From NCBI GenBank assembly GCA_964362185.1, contig CAYIDS010000001.1, positions 1 through 25,897 on the forward strand: a stretch of DNA of 25,897 nucleotides. The letters are read 5' to 3'. Both the position numbers and the translations under genes were made by a program. The DNA is from an uncultured Candidatus Saccharimonas sp. GTDB lineage: Bacteria; Patescibacteriota; Saccharimonadia; Saccharimonadales; OMJO01. Below are positions 1 through 22,997 of this stretch, one piece after another. Every line of letters starts with the position of its first letter. Position 1 is the first letter of the stretch. Under the pieces are notes generated by a model. That model was given only the letters and a program-made list of their open reading frames with translations, did no database searches and was not told the origin of the DNA.

Positions 1-361
1 ACAAAAAGTAAAAGTAGAAATCGTACCATGCCACACGTCCAAAATACAGCTGTTGTTGTAGCCACACCGTTGGCAAAACACCGCCAAACAGCCATCGATC
101 AAATCGCACCATCTCCATGTAATGAACATTTTTATTTATGAGTGGCGCCAAACTGCGCAATTTTTCATACGACAGTAGCAGTAGAACAAACGGCAAGAAA
201 TAAACTGTAAATCTTCGGCCTTGCCCAATTACCGCGAACAATACGAACAGTGCGATGAACATAACATCGGGTGTCCAAAAAGTCCGAACCGATGCGAACA
301 GCACTATTAGGCCCAGTACGTAGATTACGGCAAATGTCTTGCGGGTCGCGGAAAGCTTCAT
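1..361 (-). CDS. PAP2/AUR1 (inositol-phosphorylceramide-synthase-like) membrane protein, 3' end beyond window
   Basis: Not in the ORF track. Manual translation from ATG 361 gives MKLSATRKTFAVIYVLGLIVLF...YEKLRSLAPLINKNVHYMEMVRFDRWLFGGVLPTVWLQQQLYFGRVAWYDFYFYFL, open to the window edge. It has several TM segments and a D..LFGG.LPT.WLQ motif that I associate with PAP2_3/AUR1-like proteins. The catalytic motifs lie outside the window. Confidence 0.6.
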   Translation of the reverse strand, partial: MKLSATRKTFAVIYVLGLIVLFASVRTFWTPDVMFIALFVLFAVIGQGRRFTVYFLPFVLLLLSYEKLRSLAPLINKNVHYMEMVRFDRWLFGGVLPTVWLQQQLYFGRVAWYDFYFYFL

Positions 362-386
362 GACTACATTGTATCGCAACCATGGC

Positions 387-523
387 ACGGTCGACCACGA
401 CAGACCTGACACTCAAAACACTACACAAGCTACAAGAAGTTACAAGGTTGAACCTTGTAATGTGTTGTAGTTTCTTTTTTGGTCGTTACAATCAGGGGCG
501 GTTTTGAGTGTCAGCTCGACCGT
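387..523. repeat. Nested inverted repeats in a divergent intergenic region
   Basis: TTACAAGGTT-g-AACCTTGTAA (440-460); CTACAA/TTGTAG (430-435/465-470) share the same centre; CTGACACTCAAAAC/GTTTTGAGTGTCAG (406-419/501-514); ACGGTCGA/TCGACCGT (387-394/516-523). Confidence 0.8.
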
Positions 524-635
524 ACTTGCTCGTTATCAGAATCTACTATGGGGAATTATGCTTCATTGTGCTATGATTAATGTAAGCAAGTGGTTACTAA
601 AACCTCTCCGTTGTCATAATTCGTTCCTCAAAAGA

Positions 636-667
636 CTTACTATCACCTACGGTTGGATGATAGTAAG
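636..667 (+). promoter_or_regulatory. Hairpin in the leader of the RRM gene
   Basis: Perfect 10-bp stem CTTACTATCA/TGATAGTAAG, ending 36 nt before the ATG at 704. Function unknown. Confidence 0.45.
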
Positions 668-703
668 GCGGGCGAAATAAGTTTAATGGAAGGATAAATA
701 TAA

Positions 704-985
704 ATGTCAATGAAACTATATGTAGGCGGATTAGCTTACAGCGTAACAGACACAGAGCTAGAAACACTTTTCGCGCAGGAAGGTGCGGTTACTAGCGTAA
801 CAGTTATAAAAGATCGTGATACTGGTCAGTCAAAAGGCTTCGGCTTTGTGGAGATGGCTGATGTTAAAGAAGCCCAAAACGCTATCAAGAACTTGAATGG
901 TAAAGAGCTTAGCGGTCGCGCCATTATGGTCAACCAAGCTCGCCCACAAGAAGACCGACGCCCAAGCGGTGGCAATTTTCGATAG
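704..985 (+). CDS. RRM (RNP-1) RNA-binding protein
   Basis: RNP2 KLYVGGL, RNP1 KGFGFVEM, and the C-terminal VNQARP typical of single-RRM bacterial proteins. Confidence 0.95.
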   Translation: MSMKLYVGGLAYSVTDTELETLFAQEGAVTSVTVIKDRDTGQSKGFGFVEMADVKEAQNAIKNLNGKELSGRAIMVNQARPQEDRRPSGGNFR

Positions 986-1061
986 ATTTTAACTAGAAAA
1001 CTATTTCCGGTTAAGCAGTAACAAGATCGGGCTTGGTATCAAGTCCGACGGACGGGTGCAT

Positions 1062-2132
1062 ATGAAAAAATTGAATAAGCACATAGAAATTGTGTGCTCT
1101 GCTACGACGTATCTTAGCTCTATGAGTCAGGCTTCGCGAGACGCCGTTTTAGAAGTGCTGTCAAAGCATTACGCCAAAGTTGGCATTACGATTGTCAATA
1201 ATTTGTCGGATCTCGAGGCTCTGGTAGCAACAAGGCCAGACCTGGTCTTTTTGGGCATGAAGTTTGTGCCTACGGATCAGGCACTGGGCATGGAAGACCC
1301 GAAAAAAATTTGGATTGCCAAATATCTTGACGATTACGGTATAGCTAATACTGGGTCCGATCACTTCGCGCATGAACTTGAACTCAATAAACCGATGGCA
1401 AAGCAACGCGTTACCCAGGCTGGTCTCAAAACAGCCCCCTCTTTTGTTGCTGCCCAAAGTAAGCTATTAAGAAGTGAGGACGTCACCCTGGCGTATCCGG
1501 TATTTATAAAACCAACCAATCGTGGTGGCGGGCTAGGGATTGATAGTGACTCGGTGGCTCATAATTATGAGCAGTTGAAGGCAAAAGTTAACGCCATCGC
1601 TACTAATCTTGGGTCGGATTCGTTAGTAGAAGAGTACTTGCCAGGTCGTGAGTTTAGCGTGGCTATACTAAAGGATGAGCTATCTGGTGAGTTCGCGCTT
1701 ATGCCTCTTGAGCTGATTGCCCCACTAGATGAACGCGGCGAAAGGTTGCTGAGCGAGGCAGTGAAGTCCTCAGATACAGAGACTGCCATAAGAGTCACAG
1801 ACGAAGCCGTAAAGTCCAAAATTACCAGTCTGGCAATTAATGCGTTCTACGCGCTTGGAGCGCGTGAATACGGGCGCGTAGATATTCGCTTGGACAAATC
1901 TGGAATACCGCACTTTCTTGAGGCCAACTTGCTACCCAGTCTAATAAGGGGCTATGGCAATTTCCCAAAGGCCTGTTTCTTAAATGGGGGGCTCGACTTT
2001 GAACCAATGATCTTGAGTATTGTCAGACTGGCTCTAGTACGTGACGTCAAAGTTATCGAGGATATCCCAATATTTAGTACAATTTTGCCATCCCTAAAAT
2101 TAATACCCGATCCAGCTCCTGTAGTTGCCTAG
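1062..2132 (+). CDS. ddl: D-alanine--D-alanine ligase-like ATP-grasp enzyme
   Basis: ELNKPMAK, YPVFIKP, LVEEYLPGREFSV, YGRVDIRLD and FLEANLLP are Ddl-type ATP-grasp motifs. ATG 1062 is preferred over GTG 1056. The GSS.G loop reads GGGLG, so substrate identity is not certain. Confidence 0.7.
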   Translation: MKKLNKHIEIVCSATTYLSSMSQASRDAVLEVLSKHYAKVGITIVNNLSDLEALVATRPDLVFLGMKFVPTDQALGMEDPKKIWIAKYLDDYGIANTGSDHFAHELELNKPMAKQRVTQAGLKTAPSFVAAQSKLLRSEDVTLAYPVFIKPTNRGGGLGIDSDSVAHNYEQLKAKVNAIATNLGSDSLVEEYLPGREFSVAILKDELSGEFALMPLELIAPLDERGERLLSEAVKSSDTETAIRVTDEAVKSKITSLAINAFYALGAREYGRVDIRLDKSGIPHFLEANLLPSLIRGYGNFPKACFLNGGLDFEPMILSIVRLALVRDVKVIEDIPIFSTILPSLKLIPDPAPVVA

Positions 2133-2209
2133 TGATAGGCGTTAATGGAATCGAGCGTGGGACAGCCAGACGGCTCTTGCGTAAGTCAACCTTACTATTC
2201 GGACGGTGG

Positions 2210-2422
2210 TTAACCTCTGTCCCAGTTAGCGATTGTTCCTGCCGCGTCCAGCATAACACTCCAGGTACTCTTATCGCCTCGGTTTACAAACAACTTTTGT
2301 CTGACAGGGTTACTGGCATATCTTACAAACGAATCTTTAGACACGGGGTCTCTTTGACGTAATACACGGCTGAGCGTACTGGTCAGGAGCCACCCCGGAG
2401 TGAAAAACTGAAAAAGATACAT
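2210..2422 (-). CDS. Possible 70-aa hypothetical protein
   Basis: ATG directly follows the TGA of the upstream gene (TGAATG) and fills an otherwise empty 290-bp gap. No recognisable motif. Confidence 0.3.
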   Translation of the reverse strand: MYLFQFFTPGWLLTSTLSRVLRQRDPVSKDSFVRYASNPVRQKLFVNRGDKSTWSVMLDAAGTIANWDRG

Positions 2423-3670
2423 TCAGGCCGCCAGTGATAGCTGATCAGCAGATTGAGGGAAGGGATTATCCGCGAATTCGGGGTGATCCACTCGCCACTG
2501 TTTAAGCGGATCTGGTATTTGCTGTCCTACCTCACCGGCATCTCTTAAGGCTGCCAACAAGGTGGCTTCACCACCCCTCGCGCTGGCTATGCTAAGACAA
2601 CTGGGATATGCGACAAATTCTAGATCAGGGCGTTTAGGGGGCAGTATCTCTAAGGGGATATTAAAATCTGCCGCCCTGGCTATGATCTCCGGGTACAAAG
2701 CTTGCGCTGGGTTGTCTGCTGTTCCGGGGATAAGCACACAATGTGCAACATCATATACTCGGTTGTAGGTAGTGTCATCGTCGGGAGTGTCATTTGGTTC
2801 GAACCGCCCTATGTGAAAAAGTAATGATACGCCGCGGCGAAGTTCCACCATGTCATTTGGCCCTATCCAGCTTTTCTTTTCTTCACTAACATCGTTAACA
2901 ACCAGACCTTCTAAACCTTTAATTTCTTTGGCTGATGCCAAAAATTCTGCAGTAATATCCTTCCACGAATCAGCTATCGTAAAGCACATTTTGTATTCTC
3001 CGTCCTTAGACGTTCTGGTAGTCACGCCGATTCTGCCATCTGGCAGTCCGACATAACGTACGCCCTTGGTTCCTTCGTCGGACTCAACCAGACGCTCTAA
3101 TTTATCAAGGTTGCCGCCAATTGCAGTAACGGATTTAAACGCACTGCCCTGTGTGGGGTCGTTTGGATCATTGGGCTTAACCTCTACCCAGGTAACTACC
3201 CAGTTGCCTTTTACATAAGAAATAGCTGGGTCTTGAGCAATCTGACCTGCTGTTAACTCCGACAAATTCGAGATTGCAGCAGGGTAACAATCCCTGCCAT
3301 CTTCACTGCATTGGTAAATGGCAAGCTTGGAGGTAAATTCTCCCCCAGCGCCAATTTCTTCCTCTCGGACTAGCATATGCGGTATTTCGCCGACCTTAAA
3401 CATTTTACTGGCGTTATATACGGATATGCCTGGCGGAAGTTCGTGAAACTCCACAGGCCATGCATCGGACTCTGGTTTTTCGTATCGTTCCAATAAATCA
3501 TCTATTGATTCCGCCCCCATAACAGGATCAACTTCTTGTCCTTCTACAAAACCGTCTAACAACATGACACCTCCTAAATTTTCTAACCCTAACCGTACCA
3601 CGTCGTCTACTCGATCTGTATGCATCGAGCCGAATTGTTCTATATCTTTTTGTTCAATGGTTGCACTCAT
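2423..3670 (-). CDS. DUF1861 / MTP-1 (GT108/GH130-like five-bladed beta-propeller) protein
   Basis: Ordered motif matches recalled for DUF1861: VYN.S..F, QDP, KGVRYVGLPDGRIGVTTR, WIGPND, HIG, EIIARAADF, KRPDL. Confidence 0.6.
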   Translation of the reverse strand: MSATIEQKDIEQFGSMHTDRVDDVVRLGLENLGGVMLLDGFVEGQEVDPVMGAESIDDLLERYEKPESDAWPVEFHELPPGISVYNASKMFKVGEIPHMLVREEEIGAGGEFTSKLAIYQCSEDGRDCYPAAISNLSELTAGQIAQDPAISYVKGNWVVTWVEVKPNDPNDPTQGSAFKSVTAIGGNLDKLERLVESDEGTKGVRYVGLPDGRIGVTTRTSKDGEYKMCFTIADSWKDITAEFLASAKEIKGLEGLVVNDVSEEKKSWIGPNDMVELRRGVSLLFHIGRFEPNDTPDDDTTYNRVYDVAHCVLIPGTADNPAQALYPEIIARAADFNIPLEILPPKRPDLEFVAYPSCLSIASARGGEATLLAALRDAGEVGQQIPDPLKQWRVDHPEFADNPFPQSADQLSLAA

Positions 3671-3901
3671 TGCGTATAGGGTTTACAATTTTGGGTGATT
3701 TATTTTTGTTTGACTACATATGCTAAAAATTGCTTAACCTTATTTATCGTTATACTCCTATATAACCGTCTTGTCTAGCCCCTCATGCTAAAAGCCATAA
3801 AACTTATAAACCACAGGAGTTAATTGGCTAGGCGCGTTAGTAAGGGTAGAACTTTAGCTATCTGGTAGCATAATTCGACTCTATCGGTGTAGAATATTGC
3901 C

Positions 3902-4588
3902 ATGGTCACTAGTTTATTCAAACACAAAGTATACAAAGCAAAAAATGAGCAAAAAATCCTGTTCTTTTTTCCCGCCGGGTTTACAAAATTATGGTGGTAC
4001 CACTTTACCTTTAATTTTCTGAACCGAAAAAACATTACGGTTATAGCGTTTGATCTAGATTGGCATCGAGCAGTTAGTGAACTCGATCCAAACAAGTTAC
4101 ACCGACTACTAGATGATATTAATGAGATTGTTGAAAAAGTTCAAAATGATCATTCAAATGTTACTGAATACTCAGTTTTTGGCACAAGTTTTGGAACAGT
4201 TATTGCTCTGTACATAGCCAAAAAACACAAAAACATCCAATCAATTATTCTAAACATGCCTTATGGAACTATCGCGCACCTATTATGGACGCATAAACCT
4301 TCTAGGCCATTCAAAGATCACGCTATCGCTAGCGGTCTTGATACCGAGTTTAAATTACACACGGCATTAATGCCCATAGAGACACAGGCGAATTTAGAAA
4401 TATTGTCTGACCGAAAGGTAGTAAATTTTACGGCACTAAACGACAAGATTGTTTTTGATGGTCGAGATTTCGCAAATGCTTTAAGTAAAACTAATACCTC
4501 GGCTATTTTCCATGAGACACAATTTGGTCATTTTTGGGGCGGGATAGAAAACATTCTTTCTAAACGCAAGTGGGATTCCATACTCTAG
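3902..4588 (+). CDS. Alpha/beta-fold hydrolase
   Basis: Nucleophile elbow GTSFG, candidate acid in NDKIV and His in GHFWG, in the expected order. Confidence 0.8.
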   Translation: MVTSLFKHKVYKAKNEQKILFFFPAGFTKLWWYHFTFNFLNRKNITVIAFDLDWHRAVSELDPNKLHRLLDDINEIVEKVQNDHSNVTEYSVFGTSFGTVIALYIAKKHKNIQSIILNMPYGTIAHLLWTHKPSRPFKDHAIASGLDTEFKLHTALMPIETQANLEILSDRKVVNFTALNDKIVFDGRDFANALSKTNTSAIFHETQFGHFWGGIENILSKRKWDSIL

Positions 4589-4773
4589 ACACGCATTTCG
4601 CACTTAGCCGTTGATGCTAGGTTGCAACTAGGACGAGAGCGAAAGCTTTTAACTCGAGCAAAGCATAACTATTCAAAATATCCGTTCATCATCCCTATTC
4701 TGCAATCATAAGCCCGAAATTAATATGGTATCCTTACCATAAGGATGTTGTATGTGATGTTTGGGTGCTGTCA

Positions 4774-5679
4774 ATGACAAAACATAAAAATAAGCCTAGT
4801 CAAGGCAAGTCCGTAAGGTTTATTCTTTTAGGGCTGGTCGGCTTGGGGCTGATCATTGCAACAATGTTGCGTGGCAGTGACGTTGTGCTGTTAAACCCAA
4901 AGGGTGCGGTAGCCGGGGAGCAGCTTAAGCTGATGATATTTTCGGCGACCCTGTTGTTGACAATTGCTGTCCCGACTTTGTTTTTCTTATACTTTTTTGC
5001 CTGGAAATATAGAGAATCTAATGAAAAGGCTATGTATAGCCCACATGCCCGTCATGGCAAATTCTTTGTACTTAGCATGTGGGCGATTCCAACTGTTTCT
5101 ATAGCGGTGCTGGCAGTCGTTATGTGGTCGGCTACCCTTAAACTTGAACCTCAGAAACCAATCGCTTCTAATGCCAAGCCTCTCATTGTTCAAGTAGTGG
5201 CTTTGCGCTGGAAGTGGCTCTTTATCTACCCTGAGCACAACATTGCCACCATTAATTATGTTCAAGTTCCTACCGGTATCCCGGTGCAATTTGAGCTAAC
5301 GGCCGATGAGGCACCAATGAGTTCGTTCTGGATTCCTCACCTGGGTGGTCAATTATACGCGATGACTGGGCATTCGAATCGGCTGAATCTTATTGCCGAT
5401 ACACCGGGCGACTACCCAGGCAGATCGGCCGAAATAAACGGCGCTGGCTTTGCCGGAATGAAGTTCATAGCACGCGCTAGTTCAAAAGAAGATTTTGCTC
5501 TATGGATACAAGATGTGCGACTAACTTCAGCAGTACTTGATTGGGCAGGATATGAAAAGTTGCTTAGGCCAAGTGAGTACAACCTTGCCGAATTCTACGC
5601 CATGGCCGAAACAGACTTATATGATAAAGTGCTTATGAAATACAGGGGGTCTCACGACCACAACACGGGGCAAGAATGA
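4774..5679 (+). CDS. cyoA: Cytochrome bo3-type quinol oxidase subunit II
   Basis: LLNPKG, AWKYR, WKWLFIYP, MSSFWIPHLGGQLYAM, SAEINGAGFAGMKF. No CuA Cys motif, so it is a quinol-type subunit II. Confidence 0.95.
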   Translation: MTKHKNKPSQGKSVRFILLGLVGLGLIIATMLRGSDVVLLNPKGAVAGEQLKLMIFSATLLLTIAVPTLFFLYFFAWKYRESNEKAMYSPHARHGKFFVLSMWAIPTVSIAVLAVVMWSATLKLEPQKPIASNAKPLIVQVVALRWKWLFIYPEHNIATINYVQVPTGIPVQFELTADEAPMSSFWIPHLGGQLYAMTGHSNRLNLIADTPGDYPGRSAEINGAGFAGMKFIARASSKEDFALWIQDVRLTSAVLDWAGYEKLLRPSEYNLAEFYAMAETDLYDKVLMKYRGSHDHNTGQE

Positions 5680-7766
5680 AACAGCAACTCATCGGTAAAT
5701 TAAACCTGCACGCTCTGCCACACGAGTGGTTTACTATCGGCGGCACAGTTGCCCTTATCGGAATGATGTTGGTTGTTGCCATAGTTATTACGCGCAAGAA
5801 ACGCTGGAAATGGCTATGGAACGAGTGGCTGACCTCAGTTGATCCAAAGAAGATCGGCATAATGTATTTTATTGTGGCCGGATTTATGCTCCTACGGGGT
5901 GGGCTGGATGCGATGATGATTTGGCTCCAGCAAGCGCTGTCGGCTGGATCTTCGCATGGTTTCCTCTCAGCTGACCACTTTCAGCAAATTCTTACTGCTC
6001 ATGGAAATATCATGGTTTTCTTTGTAGCCATGGCCTTTATTTTTGGGCTCATAAACTACATCGTGCCATTGCAAATTGGCGCACGAGATCTGGCTTCGCC
6101 TTTTCTGAACACCTTGGGTTTTTGGCTGTTCGTGGCTGGTGTAGTAATGGTAAATATGTTCTTTCTACTTGGCGGAGAGTATGCTGCGACCGGCTGGCTG
6201 GCCGTTGCGCCGCTGTCGAGCAAGCAATTTAGCCCAGGCGTAGGCGTTGATTATTGGATATGGAGTTTACAGATTTCTGGTATTGGGACGACACTGGGCG
6301 CAATAAACTTTATTATGACAATTCTTAGAATGCGCGCTCCTGGAATGACCCTATGGAAAATGCCTTTGTTTACCTGGGGATCCCTGTGCAGTATGATTAT
6401 GGCAGCAACCGTTTTCCCACTCCTTACAGCTACACTTTTCCTGGTGTTTTTCGATCGGTATTTAGGCACGCATTTCTTCACCACCGACTTGGGAGGTAAC
6501 GCTATGATGTACACCAATCTCATCTGGATGTGGGGACACCCGGAAGTGTATATTTTAATGCTGCCGTCATTTGGTGTGTTTTCAGAAATAGTTTCAACCT
6601 TCAGTCGAAAGCGCGTTGCCAGCTACTTGTCTAATGTATGGGGTATGATTGGTGTCTCGACGCTAGCGCTTTCGGTGTGGCTACACCATTTCTTCACTAT
6701 GGGCGCCGGCGCGAATGTAAACGCATTCTTCGGGGTAATGACGATGGTGATTGCGATACCCACGACTGTACTGGTGTTTACCTGGATTGCCACGATGTAC
6801 AAAGGTCGGATACGGTTCGGTACGCCGATACTGTGGTTTCTTGGATTCATTGGCACATTCGCGATTGGCGGAATGACAGGTGTAATGTTGGCTGTTCCAC
6901 CTGTCGACTTTCAATTGCACAATAGTTTGTTCCTGGTGGCACACTTTCACACTATGGTTATAGGCGGGGTGGTCTTTGGTGTATTCGCCGGGATATCGTA
7001 CTGGTTTCCGAAGATAGCAGGATTTAGGCTCAACGAACGGATTGGCCGATATGCTTTTTGGTGCTGGCTAATTGGATTCGTCATGGCCTTTGCTCCGCTC
7101 TATGTGCTTGGGCTTATGGGAGCCACCAGAAGGCTTGATCACTACGACTCCTCAACTGGTTGGCAGCCGTTTTACGTCATGGCACTCATGGGAGGGATTA
7201 TTATCATGATTGGTGTCGCTCTCCAAATTGTTCAAATTATTGCTAGCTTTATTCAAAGAAGGCAACTGGTTGACACTACCGGTGATCCATGGGATGGGCG
7301 TTCACTTGAGTGGTCAACAGCTTCACCACCACCATCGTACAATTTTACCGTCATCCCCCATGTTATGTCTCGTGACGCATACTGGGAAATGAAACGACTG
7401 CATATGCCAAAGCGTTCCTACGAAGACATCCTTATCCCCAAGAATACAGCTTCAGGTATTTATATTTCTGCCTTCGCCTTTCTAGTTGGCTTCGGCTTCG
7501 TTTGGGAGATTGTCTGGCTGGTTGTCATGTCAATAATTGGCATAATAGTTTGCGTAGTTGCCCGAACCTTTAATGAACATACCGAATATACTCTCACGGC
7601 TGACGAGGTAGAAAAGCTAGAGGCGACCCGAGCCAAAAAAGCCGCTACCACGCACGCGGATAAGGATGCAGACTCGGGTGAGGACATGGGTCTGCTGGAA
7701 TTTGTCAAGTTTGTGGTTGTGTGGGCACGGAATTTTGTAAGGAAAAAACAATGGCGCACTCGGTAA
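5676..7766 (+). CDS. cyoB: Cytochrome bo3-type quinol oxidase subunit I
   Basis: Heme and CuB ligands present (TAHG, GHPEVY, WLHH, AHFH), as are the quinol-site R/D (LLRGGLD) and H/Q (DHFQQ). ATGA overlap with cyoA. Confidence 0.97.
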   Translation: MKQQLIGKLNLHALPHEWFTIGGTVALIGMMLVVAIVITRKKRWKWLWNEWLTSVDPKKIGIMYFIVAGFMLLRGGLDAMMIWLQQALSAGSSHGFLSADHFQQILTAHGNIMVFFVAMAFIFGLINYIVPLQIGARDLASPFLNTLGFWLFVAGVVMVNMFFLLGGEYAATGWLAVAPLSSKQFSPGVGVDYWIWSLQISGIGTTLGAINFIMTILRMRAPGMTLWKMPLFTWGSLCSMIMAATVFPLLTATLFLVFFDRYLGTHFFTTDLGGNAMMYTNLIWMWGHPEVYILMLPSFGVFSEIVSTFSRKRVASYLSNVWGMIGVSTLALSVWLHHFFTMGAGANVNAFFGVMTMVIAIPTTVLVFTWIATMYKGRIRFGTPILWFLGFIGTFAIGGMTGVMLAVPPVDFQLHNSLFLVAHFHTMVIGGVVFGVFAGISYWFPKIAGFRLNERIGRYAFWCWLIGFVMAFAPLYVLGLMGATRRLDHYDSSTGWQPFYVMALMGGIIIMIGVALQIVQIIASFIQRRQLVDTTGDPWDGRSLEWSTASPPPSYNFTVIPHVMSRDAYWEMKRLHMPKRSYEDILIPKNTASGIYISAFAFLVGFGFVWEIVWLVVMSIIGIIVCVVARTFNEHTEYTLTADEVEKLEATRAKKAATTHADKDADSGEDMGLLEFVKFVVVWARNFVRKKQWRTR

Positions 7767-9138: not shown

Positions 9139-9236
9139 GACGGAGGATGGCTTCGACCTACTTCGCTAAAGCTACGAAGCCCTACGCAATCCTCCATAGC
9201 TGATCCTAAAAGGATCTGCGACGGAGGATGGCTTCG
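9139..9236. repeat. 17-bp direct repeat enclosing nested palindromes
   Basis: GACGGAGGATGGCTTCG at 9139-9155 and 9220-9236. Between them are CTTCG-ctaaagcta-CGAAG and ATCCTCC...GATCCT-aaa-AGGATC...GGAGGAT. Confidence 0.85.
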
Positions 9237-9300
9237 GGACTAGGACTCGAACCTAGATTGTCCGCCTCAGGCGGATGTCCTACCGCTTAACAATCACTCC
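9229..9300 (-). pseudogene. tRNA-Gln-like remnant
   Basis: Minus strand reads GTTAAGCGGTAGGAC-A-TCCGC-ctgag-GCGGA-CAAT-CTAGG-TTCGAGT-CCTAG-TCCCGAA-G-CCA. T-arm and 3' CCA are intact, the anticodon loop is only 5 nt, and the 5' acceptor strand does not pair. The Gln assignment is inferred from discriminator G and context. Confidence 0.7.
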
Positions 9301-9344
9301 TGGCTGGGGGCACGGAATGATTATAGAACTGTCCAGAGGTCAAA

Positions 9345-9527
9345 ATGACTTTTCTATCGTCAATTCAAATCCCTGAAGAAAAATACCTAGAACTCAAAGC
9401 TATTCTAGAAAACGAACACGGTAAAGATTTTGACATGGAAGATGTAATAGAAATAGCTGATGATCTCGTTGAGCTATATTTACTACTGTATTTTTCACAA
9501 AAGAGAGCCGTTGAGGAGAAAGATTAA
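9345..9527 (+). CDS. Small acidic helical hypothetical protein (60 aa)
   Basis: Clean ORF with biased acidic/amphipathic composition (ELKAILENEHGKDF..EDVIEIADDLVELY), first gene inside the putative island end. Confidence 0.6.
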   Translation: MTFLSSIQIPEEKYLELKAILENEHGKDFDMEDVIEIADDLVELYLLLYFSQKRAVEEKD

Positions 9528-10789: not shown

Positions 10790-11653
10790 CTAGGACTTTA
10801 TAAGAATACCCGCAATAACAGCCATCACCCCGGCTGTTATTTTACGAGGCAGGCGATCAGTCTCTTTCAAGAGAAGAACACCTAATAGCACAGATAGAAT
10901 AACTTGTGCGGTGAGTAACACCACAACTACACCTCGATCTGGGGCGTTGCGATAAGCAAAGTATGAGAAGACGAAGTACCCTGTACTGCACGCCGAAGCA
11001 AACAAAGTCGCTTTAGCTACGGTAGTTTTTTGCTTAATAAGCGTCTTTATGTCTTCTCGAACCCGTTTGATGTAAGCCAACCACACAATTAGTGTAGCTC
11101 CTCCGAAACTAAGCAGCAGGTATGTACCGGCTGGCATTGTCTTAGCTAGTTCAGCACTACTCACCTGGAAGACAGCAAAGAGTAAAGCAGAGGCCAGTAT
11201 GTAGAGTACTGCTGGCTCAATCCTCTTTACGCCCTTCTTGTATTGAACTAGTAGTATCGCTAGGAACAGTACCACAATACCTATGAGCTGCTTGAATGAA
11301 AAACTGCTGTCTAGAAATAGCACCGATAGGAGTGTGCCCCATAGCAGTAGTGACGAAAAAGCAACAGCTGCAACGCTTGCCTCAAGATTAGCTAGCCCCT
11401 TGAAGAACAAGATATTGCCCCCAGCTTGAGACACAATCATGATTAGCGTAATAAGCCATAGTCCCGAAAGCCCACTAAAAGATATTCCGCCAACAAACGG
11501 GCTTATAAGCAGTGATAATACGGTGGCCCCTCCAGTGAAAAGTACCGCTTGTGTCATCGGGCTAACTTTTGCTCGATTACTCAGTACCTTAACTGCAACA
11601 CTCATAAGTGACCTTGAGCAGATAGCCAAAATTGTTAAAAGTAGCCAATTCAT
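10790..11653 (-). CDS. EamA/DMT family transporter
   Basis: About 10 TM helices in two repeats, with motifs FFKGLANLEAS and LGVLLLKE. Confidence 0.9.
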   Translation of the reverse strand: MNWLLLTILAICSRSLMSVAVKVLSNRAKVSPMTQAVLFTGGATVLSLLISPFVGGISFSGLSGLWLITLIMIVSQAGGNILFFKGLANLEASVAAVAFSSLLLWGTLLSVLFLDSSFSFKQLIGIVVLFLAILLVQYKKGVKRIEPAVLYILASALLFAVFQVSSAELAKTMPAGTYLLLSFGGATLIVWLAYIKRVREDIKTLIKQKTTVAKATLFASACSTGYFVFSYFAYRNAPDRGVVVVLLTAQVILSVLLGVLLLKETDRLPRKITAGVMAVIAGILIKS

Positions 11654-18455: not shown

Positions 18456-18633
18456 CGTATATACGTAACTACGAGTATTGATAAATCACAGCAAAGGAAA
18501 TACAGAGCTTCATAGATAAGAAACTTATTCTGAATTTTTTTACTCGTTATATATTGATAACCTATATAGATCATCAGTAATAGTGTTCAAAGAAGACGTA
18601 CTTCTTTAGGTGTTATTCTGTGCAAAATAGATC

Positions 18634-18695
18634 TGGCTGGGGGTGCAGGATTCGAACCTGCGAATGCCCGCCAGAGGCGGATGCCTTACCACTTG
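18634..18695 (-). pseudogene. tRNA-Gln-like 3' remnant
   Basis: Minus strand reads CAAGTGGTAAGGCA-TCCGC-ctctg-GCGGG-CATTC-GCAGG-TTCGAAT-CCTGC-ACCCCCA-G-CCA. It shares the D-loop and CATTC with the intact tRNA-Gln, has a 5-nt anticodon loop, and lacks the 5' end. Confidence 0.8.
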
Positions 18696-18706
18696 CATAA
18701 TTTCTC

Positions 18707-18889
18707 TTGGCTCATTTCTACAACGAAGCTCGAACCTATTTTGTTGAAAAAGCGTGATGACGAGCTCAGCCCCGCCGCCTGCTTGCGATTGTCGCAAGCC
18801 ACCCCGACAAGAAACCGCCTTTTAGTTTTTAGATATTCCCGCCAATTCCTTATTTTTCAAAGGAAAAGGTCGGTTTTCCTGTCGGTGCG
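18707..18889 (+). repeat. Left att arm (P'), inverted copy at 20694-20878
   Basis: 183 vs 185 bp, 5 substitutions and 2 indels by manual alignment, with the 85 bp next to the core identical. Contains the dyad GCTTGCGA-ttg-TCGCAAGC. Confidence 0.95.
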
Positions 18890-18938
18890 TTTTGTTAGAT
18901 ATAGCAAATATGTGACACGAAAGGTACAATCATCTCAA

Positions 18939-19080
18939 GTGGTTTGCCACTTTTGACCTAAACCATGTAATTGGCATGGTCATAAACCCAGTGAAGAATA
19001 CTGAGCTCGTCGTTCAGGTATCTTCACTGGTCGCAGTCCGAAAGGATTGTGGGGGACGAGAGTCTCCGCTTGGCGGCGAG
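18939..19080 (+). other. Multi-hairpin structured leader, candidate ncRNA or cis element
   Basis: ACCATG/CATGGT; CCAGTGAAGA.../...TCTTCACTGG (18988-19030); CGCAGTCC-GAAA-GGATTGTG (19032-19051); GGGGAC-GAGA-GTCTCC (19052-19067). Confidence 0.5.
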
Positions 19081-19114
19081 CTTTTTGTTCCCGTCCTAAA
19101 CTAAAGGAGAAAAC

Positions 19115-19690
19115 ATGTCCGACACAAAAGAAGTCAAAGCATCACAACATGAAAGCTACGGCGCATTTACAATAATCTCAATACTTTTACCCATAGTTGG
19201 AGTAATTTTAGGTATTGTTTTTCTTACCAAGGACAAGAAACTTGATAAAAAATTAGGTGAACACTGCATCGCTATAGGCGTTCTGTTCTCAATTATTTTC
19301 AGCGGTGTTTACTATTATTGGCTTGGGATTCAGACGACAACGATTCTTACAAACCCATATACCACACCACTGACAACGTCCAATTATCTTGACGACTATC
19401 AGCAACAGCAAAGTGTCGCAAAGGATGCCGTTAAAGTAACAAATACTTCCGTTAAAGACCAGGGTTATGGAATATACCAAGTAGTTGGCGAAGCAACCAA
19501 CGGCAACAGTACAGCTAAAACATTTACCTTGAAGGCTACATTTTATGACACCGCTGGCAAAATCCTTGGAACAGCAACTGGAGCACTGGATAATGTGTCT
19601 GCCGGTGAAACCAAAACATTTACTCTAGTATCTACGGATAAAATAGCTGGTTATGCAAACTATAAGGTTCAAATAGATTCCATATTTTGA
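19115..19690 (+). CDS. Membrane-anchored FxLYD-domain protein
   Basis: Two N-terminal TM segments; C-terminal VVGEATN...KATFYDTAGKILGT...GETKTF. AAGGAG SD. Confidence 0.85.
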   Translation: MSDTKEVKASQHESYGAFTIISILLPIVGVILGIVFLTKDKKLDKKLGEHCIAIGVLFSIIFSGVYYYWLGIQTTTILTNPYTTPLTTSNYLDDYQQQQSVAKDAVKVTNTSVKDQGYGIYQVVGEATNGNSTAKTFTLKATFYDTAGKILGTATGALDNVSAGETKTFTLVSTDKIAGYANYKVQIDSIF

Positions 19691-19790
19691 TTTTTTTTGC
19701 GGGTCTAATACTAAAAATATCGAGCAGAACCTGAGAGTTATTTAAGCATAAGCATTAGTCCAAGTAGACTGAATGTTGTACAATTTAAGT

Positions 19791-20300
19791 ATGAGTAACG
19801 TAGCCAATAGTAAGTATGAGAATGCAATTTTATACCTCTGTAAGCAACAGGGCGGGGTGCTTCGTGGCAAAAAGAAACTTGCCAAACTACTTTATTATCT
19901 TGATTTCGATAGGTACGAATACAAAGAGTCCACTAAATCGATAACTGGCGATACTTACACAGCATTGCCAATGGGGCCAGTACCTGACCACTTTATGCAA
20001 ATAGTCCAGCAGCTTGAAAAAACAGGCAAACTGCAGAAGGAAACACAGGAAGACTCGCCAGGATATAATCCTACAGAAGTATATATCTGCAAATCTGAAC
20101 CCGACATGTCGGTATTTGACGAGGACGAAAAAGCCATACTGAATCGTGTATTTACAGTCTATGGCCATCTTAACGGTAAACAGCTAGAAGATTTGACTCA
20201 CGCTGAAGCTCCGTATGTCGGCACCGAGCTGAGTAAAGAAATTGCTTACGACCTGGCTTTTTACCGAGGAACTGACTTCAGTGAACTTTCTACAGCATGA
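19791..20300 (+). CDS. Panacea (DUF4065/SocA-like) antitoxin
   Basis: KLAKLLYYLD, ITGDTY.ALPMGPVP, YGHLNGKQLEDLTH.EAP. Confidence 0.85.
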   Translation: MSNVANSKYENAILYLCKQQGGVLRGKKKLAKLLYYLDFDRYEYKESTKSITGDTYTALPMGPVPDHFMQIVQQLEKTGKLQKETQEDSPGYNPTEVYICKSEPDMSVFDEDEKAILNRVFTVYGHLNGKQLEDLTHAEAPYVGTELSKEIAYDLAFYRGTDFSELSTA

Positions 20301-20643
20301 CGAGTTTGTTAACGAGCTAAAGAAACTTAGCAAATACCCAAGCCTACAGGGTGGCTTAGACTCTGTGAAACGACTTCTCGAGAAACAATTTGATCCGAAT
20401 AACCCTGAGGTAGTTATACCTCCTGGGAAAATACACAGAGTGCACCAAAATACTGTCTGGTCGCTTTGGAAAATAGAAGTAGTTTTACCGAAATCTGGGC
20501 TACGACCAAGCCAATGGCCTCGTATGTGGTTCGCTGTGAGTGGCGATAAGATTGCGTTCTTATGTATCGCTGCTCATATGCAGAATTACGATAACAATAC
20601 TATCGATGCCTTAGCCACCAGCCGAGCATCAGATTATTTTTAG
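20281..20643 (+). CDS. Putative RelE/ParE-fold toxin
   Basis: EFVNELKKLSKYPSL...WKIEV...SGLRP...RMWFAV..DKIAFLCI. Overlaps the antitoxin stop. GTG 20281 is preferred, with GAGGA upstream. The fold call is by resemblance only. Confidence 0.55.
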   Translation: MNFLQHDEFVNELKKLSKYPSLQGGLDSVKRLLEKQFDPNNPEVVIPPGKIHRVHQNTVWSLWKIEVVLPKSGLRPSQWPRMWFAVSGDKIAFLCIAAHMQNYDNNTIDALATSRASDYF

Positions 20644-20693
20644 TTGCCTCCATTTCAAGCCAAAGCCTCGACCGCCTCTGCCCGCTAGGGCAG

Positions 20694-21003
20694 CGCACCG
20701 ACAGGAAAACCGACCTTTTCCTTAGAAAAAATAAGGAATTGGCGGGAATATCTAAAAAATAAAAGGACGGTTTCCTGGCGGGGTGGCTTGCGGCAATCGC
20801 AAGCAGGCGGCGGGGCTGAGCTCGTCATCACGCTTTTTCAACAAAATAGGTTCGAGCTTCGTTGTAGAAATGAGCCAATTTGAAACTTTTTGGGTTTTCA
20901 GAAGAATTTTGAAGGGCGGCACGGAGTGCCGTCCAATGTTTTTCAAGGGGGGATTTCTGAGCTTCAGGGTAGCGAAGCTGTGCTTTTTTGTTGGATAAAA
21001 TGA
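20694..21003 (-). repeat. Internal inverted attP-like junction (P-core-P')
   Basis: 20873-21003 is the exact reverse complement of 22506-22636 (131/131 by manual check). 20694-20878 matches 18707-18889. The two arms share the AGCCAA core at 20873-20878. Confidence 0.95.
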
Positions 21004-21119
21004 CCGCCATACGTGGTTTTGGTATAATACAGAAGCACCCACATCATGATTGTTCTTTTTTATGGCCGTCTTTGGACCGCATTGAGCAATCATTGTGGGT
21101 GCACCAAGGGCGGTCATTT
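20998..21119 (+). promoter_or_regulatory. Putative recombinase promoter and long leader hairpin
   Basis: TGgTATAAT (-10 at 21023-21028) and ATGACC 17 nt upstream; IR AAATGACCGCC/GGCGGTCATTT (20998-21008/21109-21119); inner stem GCACCCACA..ATGATTG/CAATCAT-TGTGGGTGC. Confidence 0.5.
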
Positions 21120-21136
21120 AAGTTAAGGAGGGTGAT

Positions 21137-22750
21137 GTGGCTGAAAAATATTTTCTTTACGCAAGGAAATCAACTGACGTTGAGGATAAGCAAGTTTTGT
21201 CCATAGAGGCACAATTAGCAGAACTACGTAACTATGCAAAACAAGAAAACTTACAGATTATTGAGGAATTAGTAGAAAAGCAATCAGCTAAAATACCAGG
21301 TCGCCGAATTTTCGGCGAAATGCTTAAACGCATTGAAGCTGGCGAAGCCAGTGGTATTTTGGCGTGGCACCCCGATAGACTTGCCAGAAACTCCATTGAC
21401 GGTGGACAGATAATCTACTTACTTGATATGGACAAAATACAAGCCCTAAAGTTCCCTAGTTTTTGGTTTGAAAGTACATCACAGGGCAAATTTATGCTTA
21501 GTATTGCTTTTGGACAATCCAAGTATTATGTAGACAACTTAGCTGAAAACACTAAACGAGGTTTACGCCAAAAAGTAAGACGAGGCGAATACCCTAGCCA
21601 TGCACCTATTGGCTACATAAACGATACTAGAAACAAAACAATTGTCGTGGACAAACGGCGTTCACTGATTGTCCGACAGGCATTTGAGCTGTACGCCAAA
21701 AACAATAGCCGATTAGAAGACATAGCCAACTTTTTAGCTAAGAACGGCATAAAGACATCTAGTGGTAAAACATACAAGAAAGACCGCATATCTTTCATGC
21801 TTGCTAACCCCTTTTATTACGGCCATTTCCGCTACGTTGGCGAACAGTATGAGGGTAAACACACACCAATCATCACGAAGAAACTATTTGACCAAGTACA
21901 GGCAGTGCTAACGCAGCGTGGCAAGCCACGCAAGCACCCGTGCAACCAGCCAAAGGCTTTTTGTGGTTTATTAGCCTGTGGTAGCTGTGAAATGGGTGTA
22001 ACTGCTGAAAAACAGAAAGGCCATGTGTATTATCGCTGTACGAGGAAAAGCAAAGCCATGAAATGTATTGAGCCTTATGTTCGTGAGGAAGAATTAGACA
22101 ACCAACTGTCTGACTTGCTTATAAGCTATTCAATGCCTAATGATTGGGCGCAGGACTTGCAAGCCAGATTAGCCAAAGACGAGCAAAAGAATCAAACTGC
22201 CTCTGGTGTGTTTGTGGCTAATGCCCAAACAAAGATTCAGAGTTTGCAAAGCAAACTCCAACGACTTCTTGACGGCTATTTAGACCAAGATATTGACCGA
22301 GATACCTATGTAGAAAAGAAAGCTGAGCTGATGAGTGAAAAGAAGTCATTGGAGGAACAATCTTCCAAGCTAACGCTTGCCAATACAAGTTGGCTCGAAC
22401 CATTCAAAGAATGGATTACAGAGGCTTCTAGCCTTCGTAATGTCGCCAAGTCTGATGACTTAACCGAAAAGAAAGCCAAACTTCGTAAAATCTTTGGCTC
22501 GAACCTCATTTTATCCAACAAAAAAGCACAGCTTCGCTACCCTGAAGCTCAGAAATCCCCCCTTGAAAAACATTGGACGGCACTCCGTGCCGCCCTTCAA
22601 AATTCTTCTGAAAACCCAAAAAGTTTCAAATTGGCTGGGAGTGAGGGATTCGAACCCCCGAATGCCAGGACCAGAACCTGGTGCCTTACCACTTGGCCAA
22701 CTCCCAATAATGCGTATCTAACAGGGGAGATTGTAGCAAACATTGGGTAA
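21137..22750 (+). CDS. Large serine recombinase (resolvase + recombinase + Zn ribbon + coiled coil)
   Basis: YARKST catalytic Ser, DRLARN, NLAENTKRGL, P.GY, CGSC...YYRC...C. GGAGG SD before the GTG. The last 37 codons are read from the antisense tRNA and its upstream region. Confidence 0.95.
   Translation: MAEKYFLYARKSTDVEDKQVLSIEAQLAELRNYAKQENLQIIEELVEKQSAKIPGRRIFGEMLKRIEAGEASGILAWHPDRLARNSIDGGQIIYLLDMDKIQALKFPSFWFESTSQGKFMLSIAFGQSKYYVDNLAENTKRGLRQKVRRGEYPSHAPIGYINDTRNKTIVVDKRRSLIVRQAFELYAKNNSRLEDIANFLAKNGIKTSSGKTYKKDRISFMLANPFYYGHFRYVGEQYEGKHTPIITKKLFDQVQAVLTQRGKPRKHPCNQPKAFCGLLACGSCEMGVTAEKQKGHVYYRCTRKSKAMKCIEPYVREEELDNQLSDLLISYSMPNDWAQDLQARLAKDEQKNQTASGVFVANAQTKIQSLQSKLQRLLDGYLDQDIDRDTYVEKKAELMSEKKSLEEQSSKLTLANTSWLEPFKEWITEASSLRNVAKSDDLTEKKAKLRKIFGSNLILSNKKAQLRYPEAQKSPLEKHWTALRAALQNSSENPKSFKLAGSEGFEPPNARTRTWCLTTWPTPNNAYLTGEIVANIG
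22632..22706 (-). tRNA. tRNA-Gln(CTG)
   Basis: TGGGAGT/ACTCCCA acceptor, GCC-AAGTGGTAA-GGC D-arm, CCAGG-ttCTGgt-CCTGG anticodon arm, GGTTCGAATCC T-loop, G-CCA end (75 nt). Confidence 0.97.
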
Positions 22751-22789
22751 AAACGCTAGTGTGATACAATGCTCTCAGGTTAACAATTT

Positions 22790-22997
22790 AAAAAATATAA
22801 AGAGTGCAGTGATCCTTCTTCGTTTATAACTACGGAAGGAGAGCAAGAACTAGCTCTATGCCGGCAACCCATTGTTCTGAATCCTGAATATGGAAGCCCG
22901 ATGACTGAATTAAAACTTCAGAATTCAGAATTCTGATTTCAAACTTCAGACTTTACGGTGCTCCATCTAGACCGCCGTTGGCGGAAAGATGTTTTGC
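22790..22997 (+). promoter_or_regulatory. SAM-I-clan riboswitch (SAM-I or SAM-I/IV) with large insertions
   Basis: Core motifs in order: ATAT-AAAGAG, GGCAACC, GGTGC, P4 hairpin, GAAAGATG; P1 AAAATAT/ATGTTTT; located upstream of metK. Confidence 0.75.

Follow-up and report, generated by a model that had tools for sequence, protein, structure and literature searches.

Introduction

Bacteria of the CPR, or Patescibacteria, have tiny genomes in which few mobile elements have been recognised. Serine integrases, known from other mobile elements, are widely used as genome-engineering tools. The large serine recombinases (LSRs) that have been studied join attP to attB only, or attL to attR when a directionality factor is present. 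The canonical rule of site choice for these enzymes is attP with attB only, and attB half-sites have the motif of the outer DNA-binding domain, DBD2, 4-5 bp nearer the centre than attP half-sites do (PMC11722253). In the literature we found no description of an element with an inverted spare attP, and the recombinase family treated here is apparently unpublished.

We analysed a stretch of 25,897 nucleotides from an uncultured Candidatus Saccharimonas sp., called the window below. The host is an ultra-small CPR bacterium, and its genome assembly is a short-read metagenome-assembled genome (MAG) of 743 kb in 162 contigs.

A small integrative element with three attachment sites

A small integrative element of 3.9 kb is inserted, as a single copy, at positions 18707-22636 of the window, at the 3' end of a tRNA-Gln gene. 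From left to right, a chromosomal B arm is joined to a P' arm, followed by the cargo, an inverted P' arm joined to an inverted P arm, the recombinase gene, and a P arm joined to the tRNA. The element is bounded by the hybrid sites attL (core 18707-18712) and attR (core 22631-22636), and a complete inverted attP (20694-21003) lies inside it. The features are as follows, in window coordinates.

18634..18697, minus strand: tRNA-Gln-like pseudogene, 5'-truncated; chromosomal B arm directly left of attL
18707..18712, plus strand: attL core TTGGCT, equal to tRNA positions 76-72 plus one base
18707..18889, plus strand: P' arm, left (attL) copy, with a P'-type half-site, 14 tail codons and a stop (18713-18757), and a 3' untranslated part
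18955..19067, plus strand: LOOT RNA (RF03000), 5' leader of cargo gene 1 (Rfam, 78.4 bits against a gathering score of 46.4)
19115..19690, plus strand: cargo gene 1, membrane protein with FxLYD domain (NCBIfam NF038353, E = 1.5e-07)
19773..20300, plus strand: cargo gene 2, SocA/Panacea-domain antitoxin-like protein (Pfam PF13274, E = 3.5e-19)
20281..20643, plus strand: cargo gene 3, open reading frame (ORF) for a 120-aa protein, overlapping the Panacea gene; a gene call on contig L104 (600-962) maps here
20694..21003, minus strand: internal complete inverted attP, with P' arm 20694-20878, core 20873-20878 and P arm 20873-21003
20914..20979, plus strand: pair of terminator-like hairpins that face inward within the internal P arm (20914-20934 and 20960-20979)
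21000..21028, plus strand: recombinase promoter candidate (ATGACC, 17-nt spacer, TGnTATAAT)
21137..22750, plus strand: large serine recombinase gene, 537 aa; residues 457-500 from the P arm, 501-537 from the tRNA antisense strand and the flank beyond
22506..22636, plus strand: P arm, attR copy, with the recombinase C-terminus (sense), a P-type half-site and core 22631-22636
22595-22575 and 22549-22530, antisense strand: two terminator-like hairpins in the attR P arm
22632..22706, minus strand: tRNA-Gln(CUG), intact, B' half of the target (ARAGORN; Rfam, 62.2 bits)

Repeat search and BLAST showed that the P arms (20873-21003 and 22506-22636) are 131 nt long and 100% complementary. The P' arms (18707-18889 and 20694-20878) gave a 185-nt alignment with 96.2% identity, 5 mismatches and 2 one-base gaps. 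Because their first difference is at 18792, the 85 nt next to the core are perfect. An initial annotation, made from the window sequence, had read the architecture correctly, and its perfect 131-bp P repeats and approximately 96% identical P' repeats, with 85 bp perfect beside the core, were found where it had placed them. The 6-bp core TTGGCT was common to the three sites (18707-18712, 20873-20878 as reverse complement, and 22631-22636), and these were the sole site copies in the 743-kb genome.

Each junction in the window was also supported by independent contigs from Logan. The attL junction was covered by Logan/ENA contigs X2 record 9 and X1 record 2, the internal site by X3 record 20 (spanning 20794-21020), and attR with the entire P arm by X1 record 7 (spanning 22381-22827). 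The cargo was covered by independent contigs L103 and L104.

The pseudogene left of attL shares direct repeats D1 and D2 with the real tRNA. Alignment A3 showed a 2-nt loss in its anticodon stem-loop and absence of the 5' acceptor strand, and neither ARAGORN nor Rfam called a tRNA there.

The recombinase

Judged by its domains, the enzyme is a canonical LSR. A resolvase-type catalytic domain with the serine nucleophile (PF00239, E = 3.5e-21) occupied residues 6-151, and R10, K11, S12, T13 and D14 were invariant in 70 relatives. The Recombinase domain (DBD1, PF07508) and the zinc ribbon Zn_ribbon_recom (DBD2, PF13408) were matched, with invariant zinc-ribbon cysteines C281, C284, C301 and C310. 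The A118 integrase structure 4kis aligned to residues 197-414, and long helices were predicted at 335-453 in an AF2 model. NCBIfam scores to CcrB and XisF were far under the cut-offs.

The ORF crosses the P arm and the antisense strand of the tRNA to give 537 aa; a joint of P with P' would give 514 aa ending in HFYNEARTYFVEKA. This natural tail is conserved in length and has the motif YNxARTYF. Residues 494-514 had pLDDT below 50 in the AF2 model; the swapped tail is predicted to be disordered, and it falls beyond the domains common with A118 integrase.

Profile searches and gene layouts revealed neither a conserved small gene accompanying the recombinase nor an evident directionality-factor gene in the elements. 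A 60-aa ORF at 20828-21010 (minus strand) was rejected as a separate gene for a C-terminal peptide, its start codon being unconserved outside the closest clade. A phage origin of the element is unlikely because IMG/VR gave only 4 matches, all weak or partial.

The promoter candidate at 21000-21028 was the best promoter-like match in the region (10/12, a consensus match only) and likely drives the recombinase.

Attachment sites and a probable embedded terminator

The attP sits in the last codons of the recombinase's own gene. A block of 6 nt in this element, and of 3-5 nt in relatives, is shared by attP and attB, and the smallest block common across 27 loci was G(T/A)G, corresponding to tRNA positions 74-72. 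The B arms were unrelated to P. From the symmetry of the half-sites we infer CT at 18711-18712 as the crossover dinucleotide.

The P' arm mimics the T-arm and T-loop of the tRNA. Measured from the core, its GAAC motif in the window is 4 bp further out than that of the tRNA, and the same offset was found in 34 of 38 loci. This offset matches the spacing rule for DBD2 in attP and attB (PMC11722253). Differences between the two copies of an arm were depleted in the 40 nt adjacent to the core, for P' (odds ratio 0.32, p = 1e-4) and for P (odds ratio 0.56, p = 0.006).

Of 60 P arms, 37 had an inward terminator-like hairpin and only 2 had one in the sense direction; compensatory changes were seen at all 6 pairs of the inward stem across the family. 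The hairpin is on the antisense strand of the P arm and faces the tRNA. Sequence comparison showed three apparent roles for the P arm: the C-terminus of the recombinase, a half-site and, on the other strand, a terminator replacing the one lost by the tRNA. The design is compact, a 131-nt arm being protein end, recombination half-site and tRNA terminator at once.

Distribution in the family and variable cargo

Public data contain thousands of members of the recombinase family, and the elements target 13 tRNA types. The P inverted repeat was present in 50 of 55 testable loci; identity between its copies was 100% in 26 of the 50, 98-99.9% in 11 and lower in 13. The P' inverted repeat surrounded a cargo of 1.1-8 kb in 27 loci, including one in the complete genome CP064994. 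Judged by these loci, the normal design of the family appears to include a spare attP, complete and inverted, that separates the cargo from the recombinase. There are two complete attP-type sites per excised element, not one as in standard LSR elements. Among clustered proteins, P0121 and P0122 were unrelated peptides, and the odd tail of P0137 came from a truncated tRNA remnant, not from P'.

Look-ups with the cargo proteins returned only two short contigs, identical to the window. The cargo encodes a membrane protein and the Panacea pair, and profile searches found no replication gene in it. The product of cargo gene 3 had no family match among Pfam and NCBIfam profiles; it is presumed to be the toxin partner of the Panacea gene. 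Across the recombinase family, toxin-antitoxin, defence, glycosyltransferase and transport genes were carried as cargo. The LOOT RNA was rejected as a part of the family and assigned to the cargo because, among 12 sequences scanned, only the window and L081 were positive.

Inversion of the two modules

Because crossover cores bound each integrated module in inverted order, either module could invert without a change in junction type. As the initial annotation had pointed out, it follows from the sequence that a flip regenerates the same junction types and joins the recombinase gene to the HFYNEARTYFVEKA tail. The flipped arrangement that it proposed to look for in relatives was found for both modules. 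Homologous cargo was inverted between loci L052 and L037, and the coding strand of the cargo relative to the recombinase was the same in 11 loci, opposite in 11 and mixed in 5. In L110 the recombinase was flipped, and this assembly is unambiguous because its P copies are only 84% alike. Flips in L051, L071, L111 and L112 pass through perfect repeats and could be choices of the assembler.

The recombinase module pointed into the tRNA in approximately 60 loci and away from it in 2-3. Among unambiguous copies, which are old and have decayed repeats, the ratio was approximately 17:1. From the bias of approximately 60:3, flipping must be rare or strongly biased. In four runs holding the window sequence, at 2-6x coverage, we saw no second orientation, circle or empty site; these runs were examined as Logan contigs (k=31) only, for which the order across the 131-nt repeat is not resolvable. 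A search of IMG/VR did not reveal a circular form either. A recombinase module with tRNAs on both sides, the product expected from recombination of the internal attP with a second tRNA, was not found. In sample S1, which represents the population of the window, the left P' arm was a mosaic carrying five variants of the internal arm.

One tandem array, L020, had a joint at which, from the core outward, 229 of 229 positions were identical on the P' side and 58 of 94 on the P side. The position of this joint, exactly at the core, suggests a looser pairing, of attP with a hybrid site. An ENA contig with the 514-aa natural tail, L019, was considered as a flipped or excised form; it is explained by a collapsed repeat, as it starts 66 nt from the repeat and stops exactly 55 nt, one k-mer, into P', with 2x coverage.

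Role of the spare attP

The spare attP is probably a working joint between the modules, allowing rare inversion, stacking and module exchange. The LSR inserted the element at the last bases of tRNA-Gln. The recombinase may also use hybrid sites carrying a P or tRNA half, as the tandem arrays jointed at the core suggest; such use would make these rearrangements possible, and the long arms would be kept alike by host recombination. An excised circle would hold two equivalent inverted attP sites, in the manner of the 2-micron plasmid. The window would show the element at rest, as it usually is, with its recombinase gene directed into the tRNA, and the change of its C-terminal tail is most likely a harmless by-product. 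Several observations count against this explanation. We know of no precedent for an inversion between attP and attR by an LSR, the pairings described above being those of the enzymes studied. The orientation bias and the absence of a second orientation, circle or empty site from the four runs also weigh against it. Most of the flipped examples (L051, L071, L111 and L112) may be due to the assembler, and RecA-type gene conversion alone could explain why one arm is a mosaic and why the arms are nearly identical.

The strongest alternative is possible, though clearly less probable. The recombinase would be limited to attP with attB, the spare attP would give the circle two equivalent sites or be a tolerated duplicate, and inversions, mosaics and homogenisation would come from host homologous recombination between repeats of 130-360 nt. 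This agrees with the canonical site rule (PMC11722253) and with the rarity of flips. The arms, far longer than a half-site and in most cases 98% or more alike, are what gene conversion would give, and the mosaic arm in S1 fits a conversion tract. However, equal use of both attP sites would be expected to leave approximately half of the integrants flipped, against the observed 60:3. The two copies were also kept more alike in the 40 nt adjacent to the core than in the rest. The L020 joint goes beyond homologous recombination and calls for attP with a hybrid site, because identity is 100% on one side and 62% on the other, with the change exactly at the core.

An unlikely possibility is a self-locking switch, in which the recombinase flips its own gene through the spare attP in place of a directionality factor. 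Once flipped, the gene would be downstream of and co-directional with the tRNA and would have its natural tail, so that enzyme is produced and the element can move. In the usual orientation, it would converge on the tRNA behind two terminators with a foreign tail, leaving the enzyme off and the element locked. If true, this would account for the orientation bias of approximately 20:1.

The initial annotation favoured frequent self-flipping between natural and tRNA-antisense tail isoforms with different activities, as a phase-variable switch. The sequence logic holds, the natural tail has a conserved length and motif, and the strong orientation bias implies that the two states are not equivalent. 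We nevertheless regard this reading as improbable: a frequent isoform switch was not supported because of the same orientation bias, seen also in old copies with decayed repeats, the single orientation in the population of the window and the predicted disorder of the tail (pLDDT below 50), which lies outside the A118-like domains. L019, a collapsed repeat, offers it no support, and the overlapping DNA half-site can account for the conserved tail.

It is very unlikely that the internal attP is a regulatory or decoy site without crossover, titrating the recombinase, repressing the promoter or acting as a DNA cofactor for excision. In all members, the internal attP precedes the recombinase gene by 130-330 nt, the -35 element of the promoter abuts the repeat boundary, the core-proximal part is conserved, and the elements have no conserved directionality-factor gene. 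However, the core is 126 bp from the -35 element, far for simple repression, and cargo and recombinase modules were inverted with end points at these sites. Folding of a single-stranded form into a double-stranded attP, as in CTXphi, does not suit a serine recombinase, an enzyme that cleaves both strands, and was rejected on this reasoning. Misassembly and a single relic left by double integration in this genome can be dismissed. The initial annotation had raised both, and the perfect P arm and the 162-contig short-read MAG are in their favour. However, independent contigs cover each junction, and the same layout was found in 50 of 55 relatives, which come from many assemblers and include a complete genome; many of them have imperfect repeats.

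Comparison with known systems

Should the layout prove as general as it seems, it would be a main route of gene gain in CPR bacteria, by recombinases that target a universal feature, the T-arm plus CCA. Pairing of attP with hybrid sites, if it occurs, would broaden the known site choice of serine integrases.

The element resembles those of large serine integrases (A118/LI, SPbeta SprA, phiC31, Bxb1; CcrAB, XisF, TnpX) in the resolvase and recombinase domains and the zinc ribbon with coiled coil. It also resembles them in its short and unlike attP and attB with few central bases in common, in the hybrid attL and attR around the element, and in the outer (DBD2) motif lying 4 bp nearer the centre in the bacterial half-site. 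Unlike in those systems, the recombinase gene contains attP in its 3' end, and integration is at the 3' end of nearly any tRNA, whose T-arm is imitated by P'. Each element also carries a further complete attP in inverted orientation, and a directionality-factor gene is not apparent. In at least one array, attP must have paired with a hybrid site.

The likeness to the yeast 2-micron plasmid (FLP/FRT, 599-bp inverted repeats) is in the inferred circle, in which two unique segments would lie between site-bearing inverted repeats, with the recombinase in one. However, the plasmid has a tyrosine recombinase, FLP, and as a replicon uses flipping for copy-number amplification, whereas the present element has a serine recombinase and no replication gene and is integrated at a tRNA, its circle not having been observed.

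As in the serine invertase switches (Hin, Gin, Cin, Pin) and shufflons, a segment between inverted crossover sites can flip, and, as in Mu G, P1 C and shufflons, a flip exchanges the C-terminal coding end of a gene. In those systems the sites are identical and the two orientations occur side by side, and the enzyme is either a small serine invertase with a helix-turn-helix (HTH) domain and a Fis enhancer or the tyrosine recombinase Rci. Here, in contrast to Hin and Gin, the enzyme is an LSR of approximately 500 aa, the paired sites are hybrids with only one arm in common, and across genomes one orientation dominates by approximately 20:1. In archaeal viruses of the SSV1 type, the recombinase gene likewise contains the attachment site and is cut there on integration, but the SSV integrase is a tyrosine recombinase whose gene is split into two inactive parts, whereas here only the last 14 codons are exchanged.

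Repeat geometry in the window

The initial annotation described two pairs of inverted arms meeting at a shared core, and the repeats were found exactly as it had placed them.

18707-18889 and 20694-20878: P' arms (cargo-side half of attP), 96.2% identical over a 185-nt alignment, first mismatch at 18792
20873-21003 and 22506-22636: P arms (recombinase-gene-side half of attP), perfectly complementary over 131 nt
21137-22750: ORF of a large serine recombinase (LSR) with Resolvase, Recombinase and Zn_ribbon_recom domains
22632-22706, minus strand: tRNA-Gln(CUG)

A 6-bp core, TTGGCT, is common to all three att sites of the element and, given the position of the tRNA gene, therefore overlies the tRNA CCA end. 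The recombinase ORF continues through the P arm onto the antisense strand of the tRNA; if the gene were fused to P' instead, its C-terminus would be HFYNEARTYFVEKA. The window is an entire contig of a 743-kb genome in 162 contigs, and no further att-site copies were found anywhere in that genome.

Conservation of the layout in relatives

We retrieved 85 recombinase loci from relatives (protein identity 53-84%). Of the 55 loci with enough sequence, 50 carry an inverted copy of the final 106-185 nt of the recombinase gene, placed 57-330 nt ahead of its 5' end. The P copies were 100% identical in 26 loci, 98-99.9% identical in 11 and less similar in 13. In 27 loci, one of them in the complete genome CP064994, the same core also marks the start of another pair of repeats (P', 136-360 nt) with 1.1-8 kb of cargo between them. 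The imperfect repeats in these relatives cannot have been produced by repeat collapse, and in the window attL, the internal joint, attR with its whole P arm and the cargo are all covered by independent Logan/ENA contigs. The inverted-attP structure is not an assembly artefact. It represents the usual plan of a very large family of elements in Candidate Phyla Radiation (CPR) bacteria whose serine recombinases target tRNA genes. No published description of this layout was found in the literature.

Differences between repeat copies were depleted in the core-proximal 40 nt, for P' (odds ratio 0.32, p=1e-4) as well as P (odds ratio 0.56, p=0.006). This pattern is consistent with selection on both half-site copies; gene conversion could contribute.

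Inversion of the two modules

Both modules had been proposed to be invertible, and when flipped arrangements were sought in relatives they were seen for each. Homologous cargo lies in opposite orientations in loci L052 and L037, with the recombinase module collinear. The coding strand of the cargo relative to the recombinase was the same in 11 elements, opposite in 11 and mixed in 5, and the LOOT RNA, inward-facing in both cases, is on the left-arm side in the window and on the right-arm side in L081. For the recombinase module, locus L110 has the order tRNA-Met(+), inverted P, recombinase, P, P', cargo; its P copies are only 84% alike, which makes it an unambiguous flipped copy. Four other loci (L051, L071, L111 and L112) appear flipped, and their paths cross perfect or cut repeats, where the orientation may be the assembler's choice. 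Recombinase orientation was about 60 to 3 overall, and about 17 to 1 among loci whose P copies are <98% alike, so flipping of this module is rare or strongly biased.

L110 is composite (1-5794), with tRNA-Met(+), the flipped recombinase module, one cargo module and the beginning of another recombinase module, about 76% similar. One cargo can be shared by modules of different elements.

Four groundwater runs contain the sequence at 2-6x, available solely as k=31 contigs, and in these contigs no alternative joint, empty site or circle was seen. One contig of sample S1 (18588-19409) carries the internal-arm variants at 18792, 18807, 18810, +T after 18817 and 18825, lacks the two inner internal-arm variants, and extends into the cargo from its left side. 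Such a mosaic P' arm shows recent exchange or conversion between the two P' arms, with no indication of the enzyme responsible.

The recombinase tail

Alignment with A118 integrase was limited to residues 197-414 of the recombinase. In the AF2 model, the last zinc-domain hairpin is at 457-466, followed by a low-confidence helix at 479-492 and by residues 494-514 with pLDDT <50. The isoforms would differ solely in an end predicted to be disordered. Conservation of the natural tail coincides with the overlapping DNA half-site. The 514-aa form in L019, with the P'-encoded tail, was rejected as a real alternative isoform, because repeat collapse at 2x coverage accounts for that contig. A frequent isoform switch, as first suggested, is therefore unsupported in view of the orientation ratio, the lack of a second orientation in the contigs of the four runs, the collapse in L019 and the predicted disorder.

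Terminator-like hairpins in the P arm

Two terminator-like hairpins face the tRNA:

22595-22575, antisense strand of the P arm: terminator-like hairpin
22549-22530, antisense strand of the P arm: terminator-like hairpin

A hairpin with a T-run is directed inward in 37 of 60 P arms of the family and outward in 2. Compensatory changes were found at all six stem pairs in an alignment of 48 arms; the stem sits within the conserved recombinase codons W-x-A-L-R-A-A, yet it covaries. The inward direction and the covariation suggest that the P arm gives the tRNA a replacement terminator. The internal P-arm copy holds mirror images of both hairpins, and would thus guard the recombinase gene on its cargo-facing side.

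Cargo and neighbouring remnants

Strong matches to LOOT RNA (RF03000) lie at 18955-19067 (+; 78 bits), inside the 5' leader of the gene that opens the cargo and encodes a membrane protein with an FxLYD domain, and in L081 at 9244-9361 (-; 84 bits), upstream of a 1484-aa ORF. Among 12 sequences scanned, it was not found beyond these two cargo modules. At 19773-20643, a SocA/Panacea antitoxin-like gene overlaps a 120-aa gene without a family match, a candidate new toxin partner.

A TGGCT lies about 11 nt beyond each of two similar 5'-truncated tRNA-Gln-like pseudogenes (9235-9330 and 18634-18712). The one at 9301-9330 leads into a sequence resembling P', in which GAAC has the P' spacing. Between the pseudogenes lie 9.3 kb with TIR and double-MutS genes, possibly the cargo of an earlier element of this type. 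Record 3 of the Logan contig set X1 (18588-18639) comes from a near-identical genome in the same aquifer, in which another element's P' arm (TATTATGTACCAGGTTAGAACC...) is attached at position 18639, where the tRNA-like pseudogene has its 3' end; this pseudogene end is therefore a target as well.

Proposed use of the internal attP

In locus L020, an intact element is adjoined by an older one with a collapsed recombinase module. Compared from the core outward with the internal site of the intact element, their joint matches at 229/229 positions on the P' side and at just 58/94 on the P side. An identity step located precisely at the core is a signature of site-specific crossover, in this case of an incoming attP with an attR (or attL) already resident. 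To our knowledge, the LSRs studied do not pair attP with attR or attL. The pairing that L020 suggests is the same one that module inversion would require. We propose that the spare attP acts as a functional link between the modules, used rarely by the recombinase, and that host recombination would keep the long arms similar.

Attachment sites and tRNA targeting

The recombinase 3' end adjoins a tRNA 3' end in at least 60 loci, with 13 tRNA types as targets. When attL, the internal site and attR from 27 elements were aligned, the common block was just 3-6 nt, the smallest being G(T/A)G, tRNA positions 74-72. From half-site symmetry, we infer that the crossover dinucleotide would be tRNA positions 73-72 (CT at 22635-22636 in the window). 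The left flanks of these elements are the next tRNA or ordinary terminator-like sequence 3' of a tRNA.

L033 and L055 occupy different tRNAs (Gly-CCC and Leu-UAG); their att arms are 99% alike and their recombinase modules just 86%. The arms are better conserved than the gene, and the choice of target is broad. In L028 and L109 (both 11530-11545), the target tRNA is truncated 12-13 nt past the core, just short of the T-loop, and gives way to unrelated sequence.

Both in the window (22494-22505) and in relatives, the P repeat stops on its inner side at or beside TCGAACC within the invariant FGSNL codons, a motif shared with the T-loop and P'. This may be either a second binding site or a coding coincidence.

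P' contains a conserved motif, TAC.AC...GCTCGAAC. In 34 of 38 loci, its GAAC is placed 4 bp farther out from the tRNA end than the one in the T-loop. According to cryo-EM studies of SPbeta integrase (PMC11722253), the second DNA-binding domain lies 4-5 bp nearer the centre in attB half-sites than in those of attP. The 4-bp GAAC offset matches this attP/attB spacing, so the system obeys canonical attP/attB logic, with P' imitating the T-arm.
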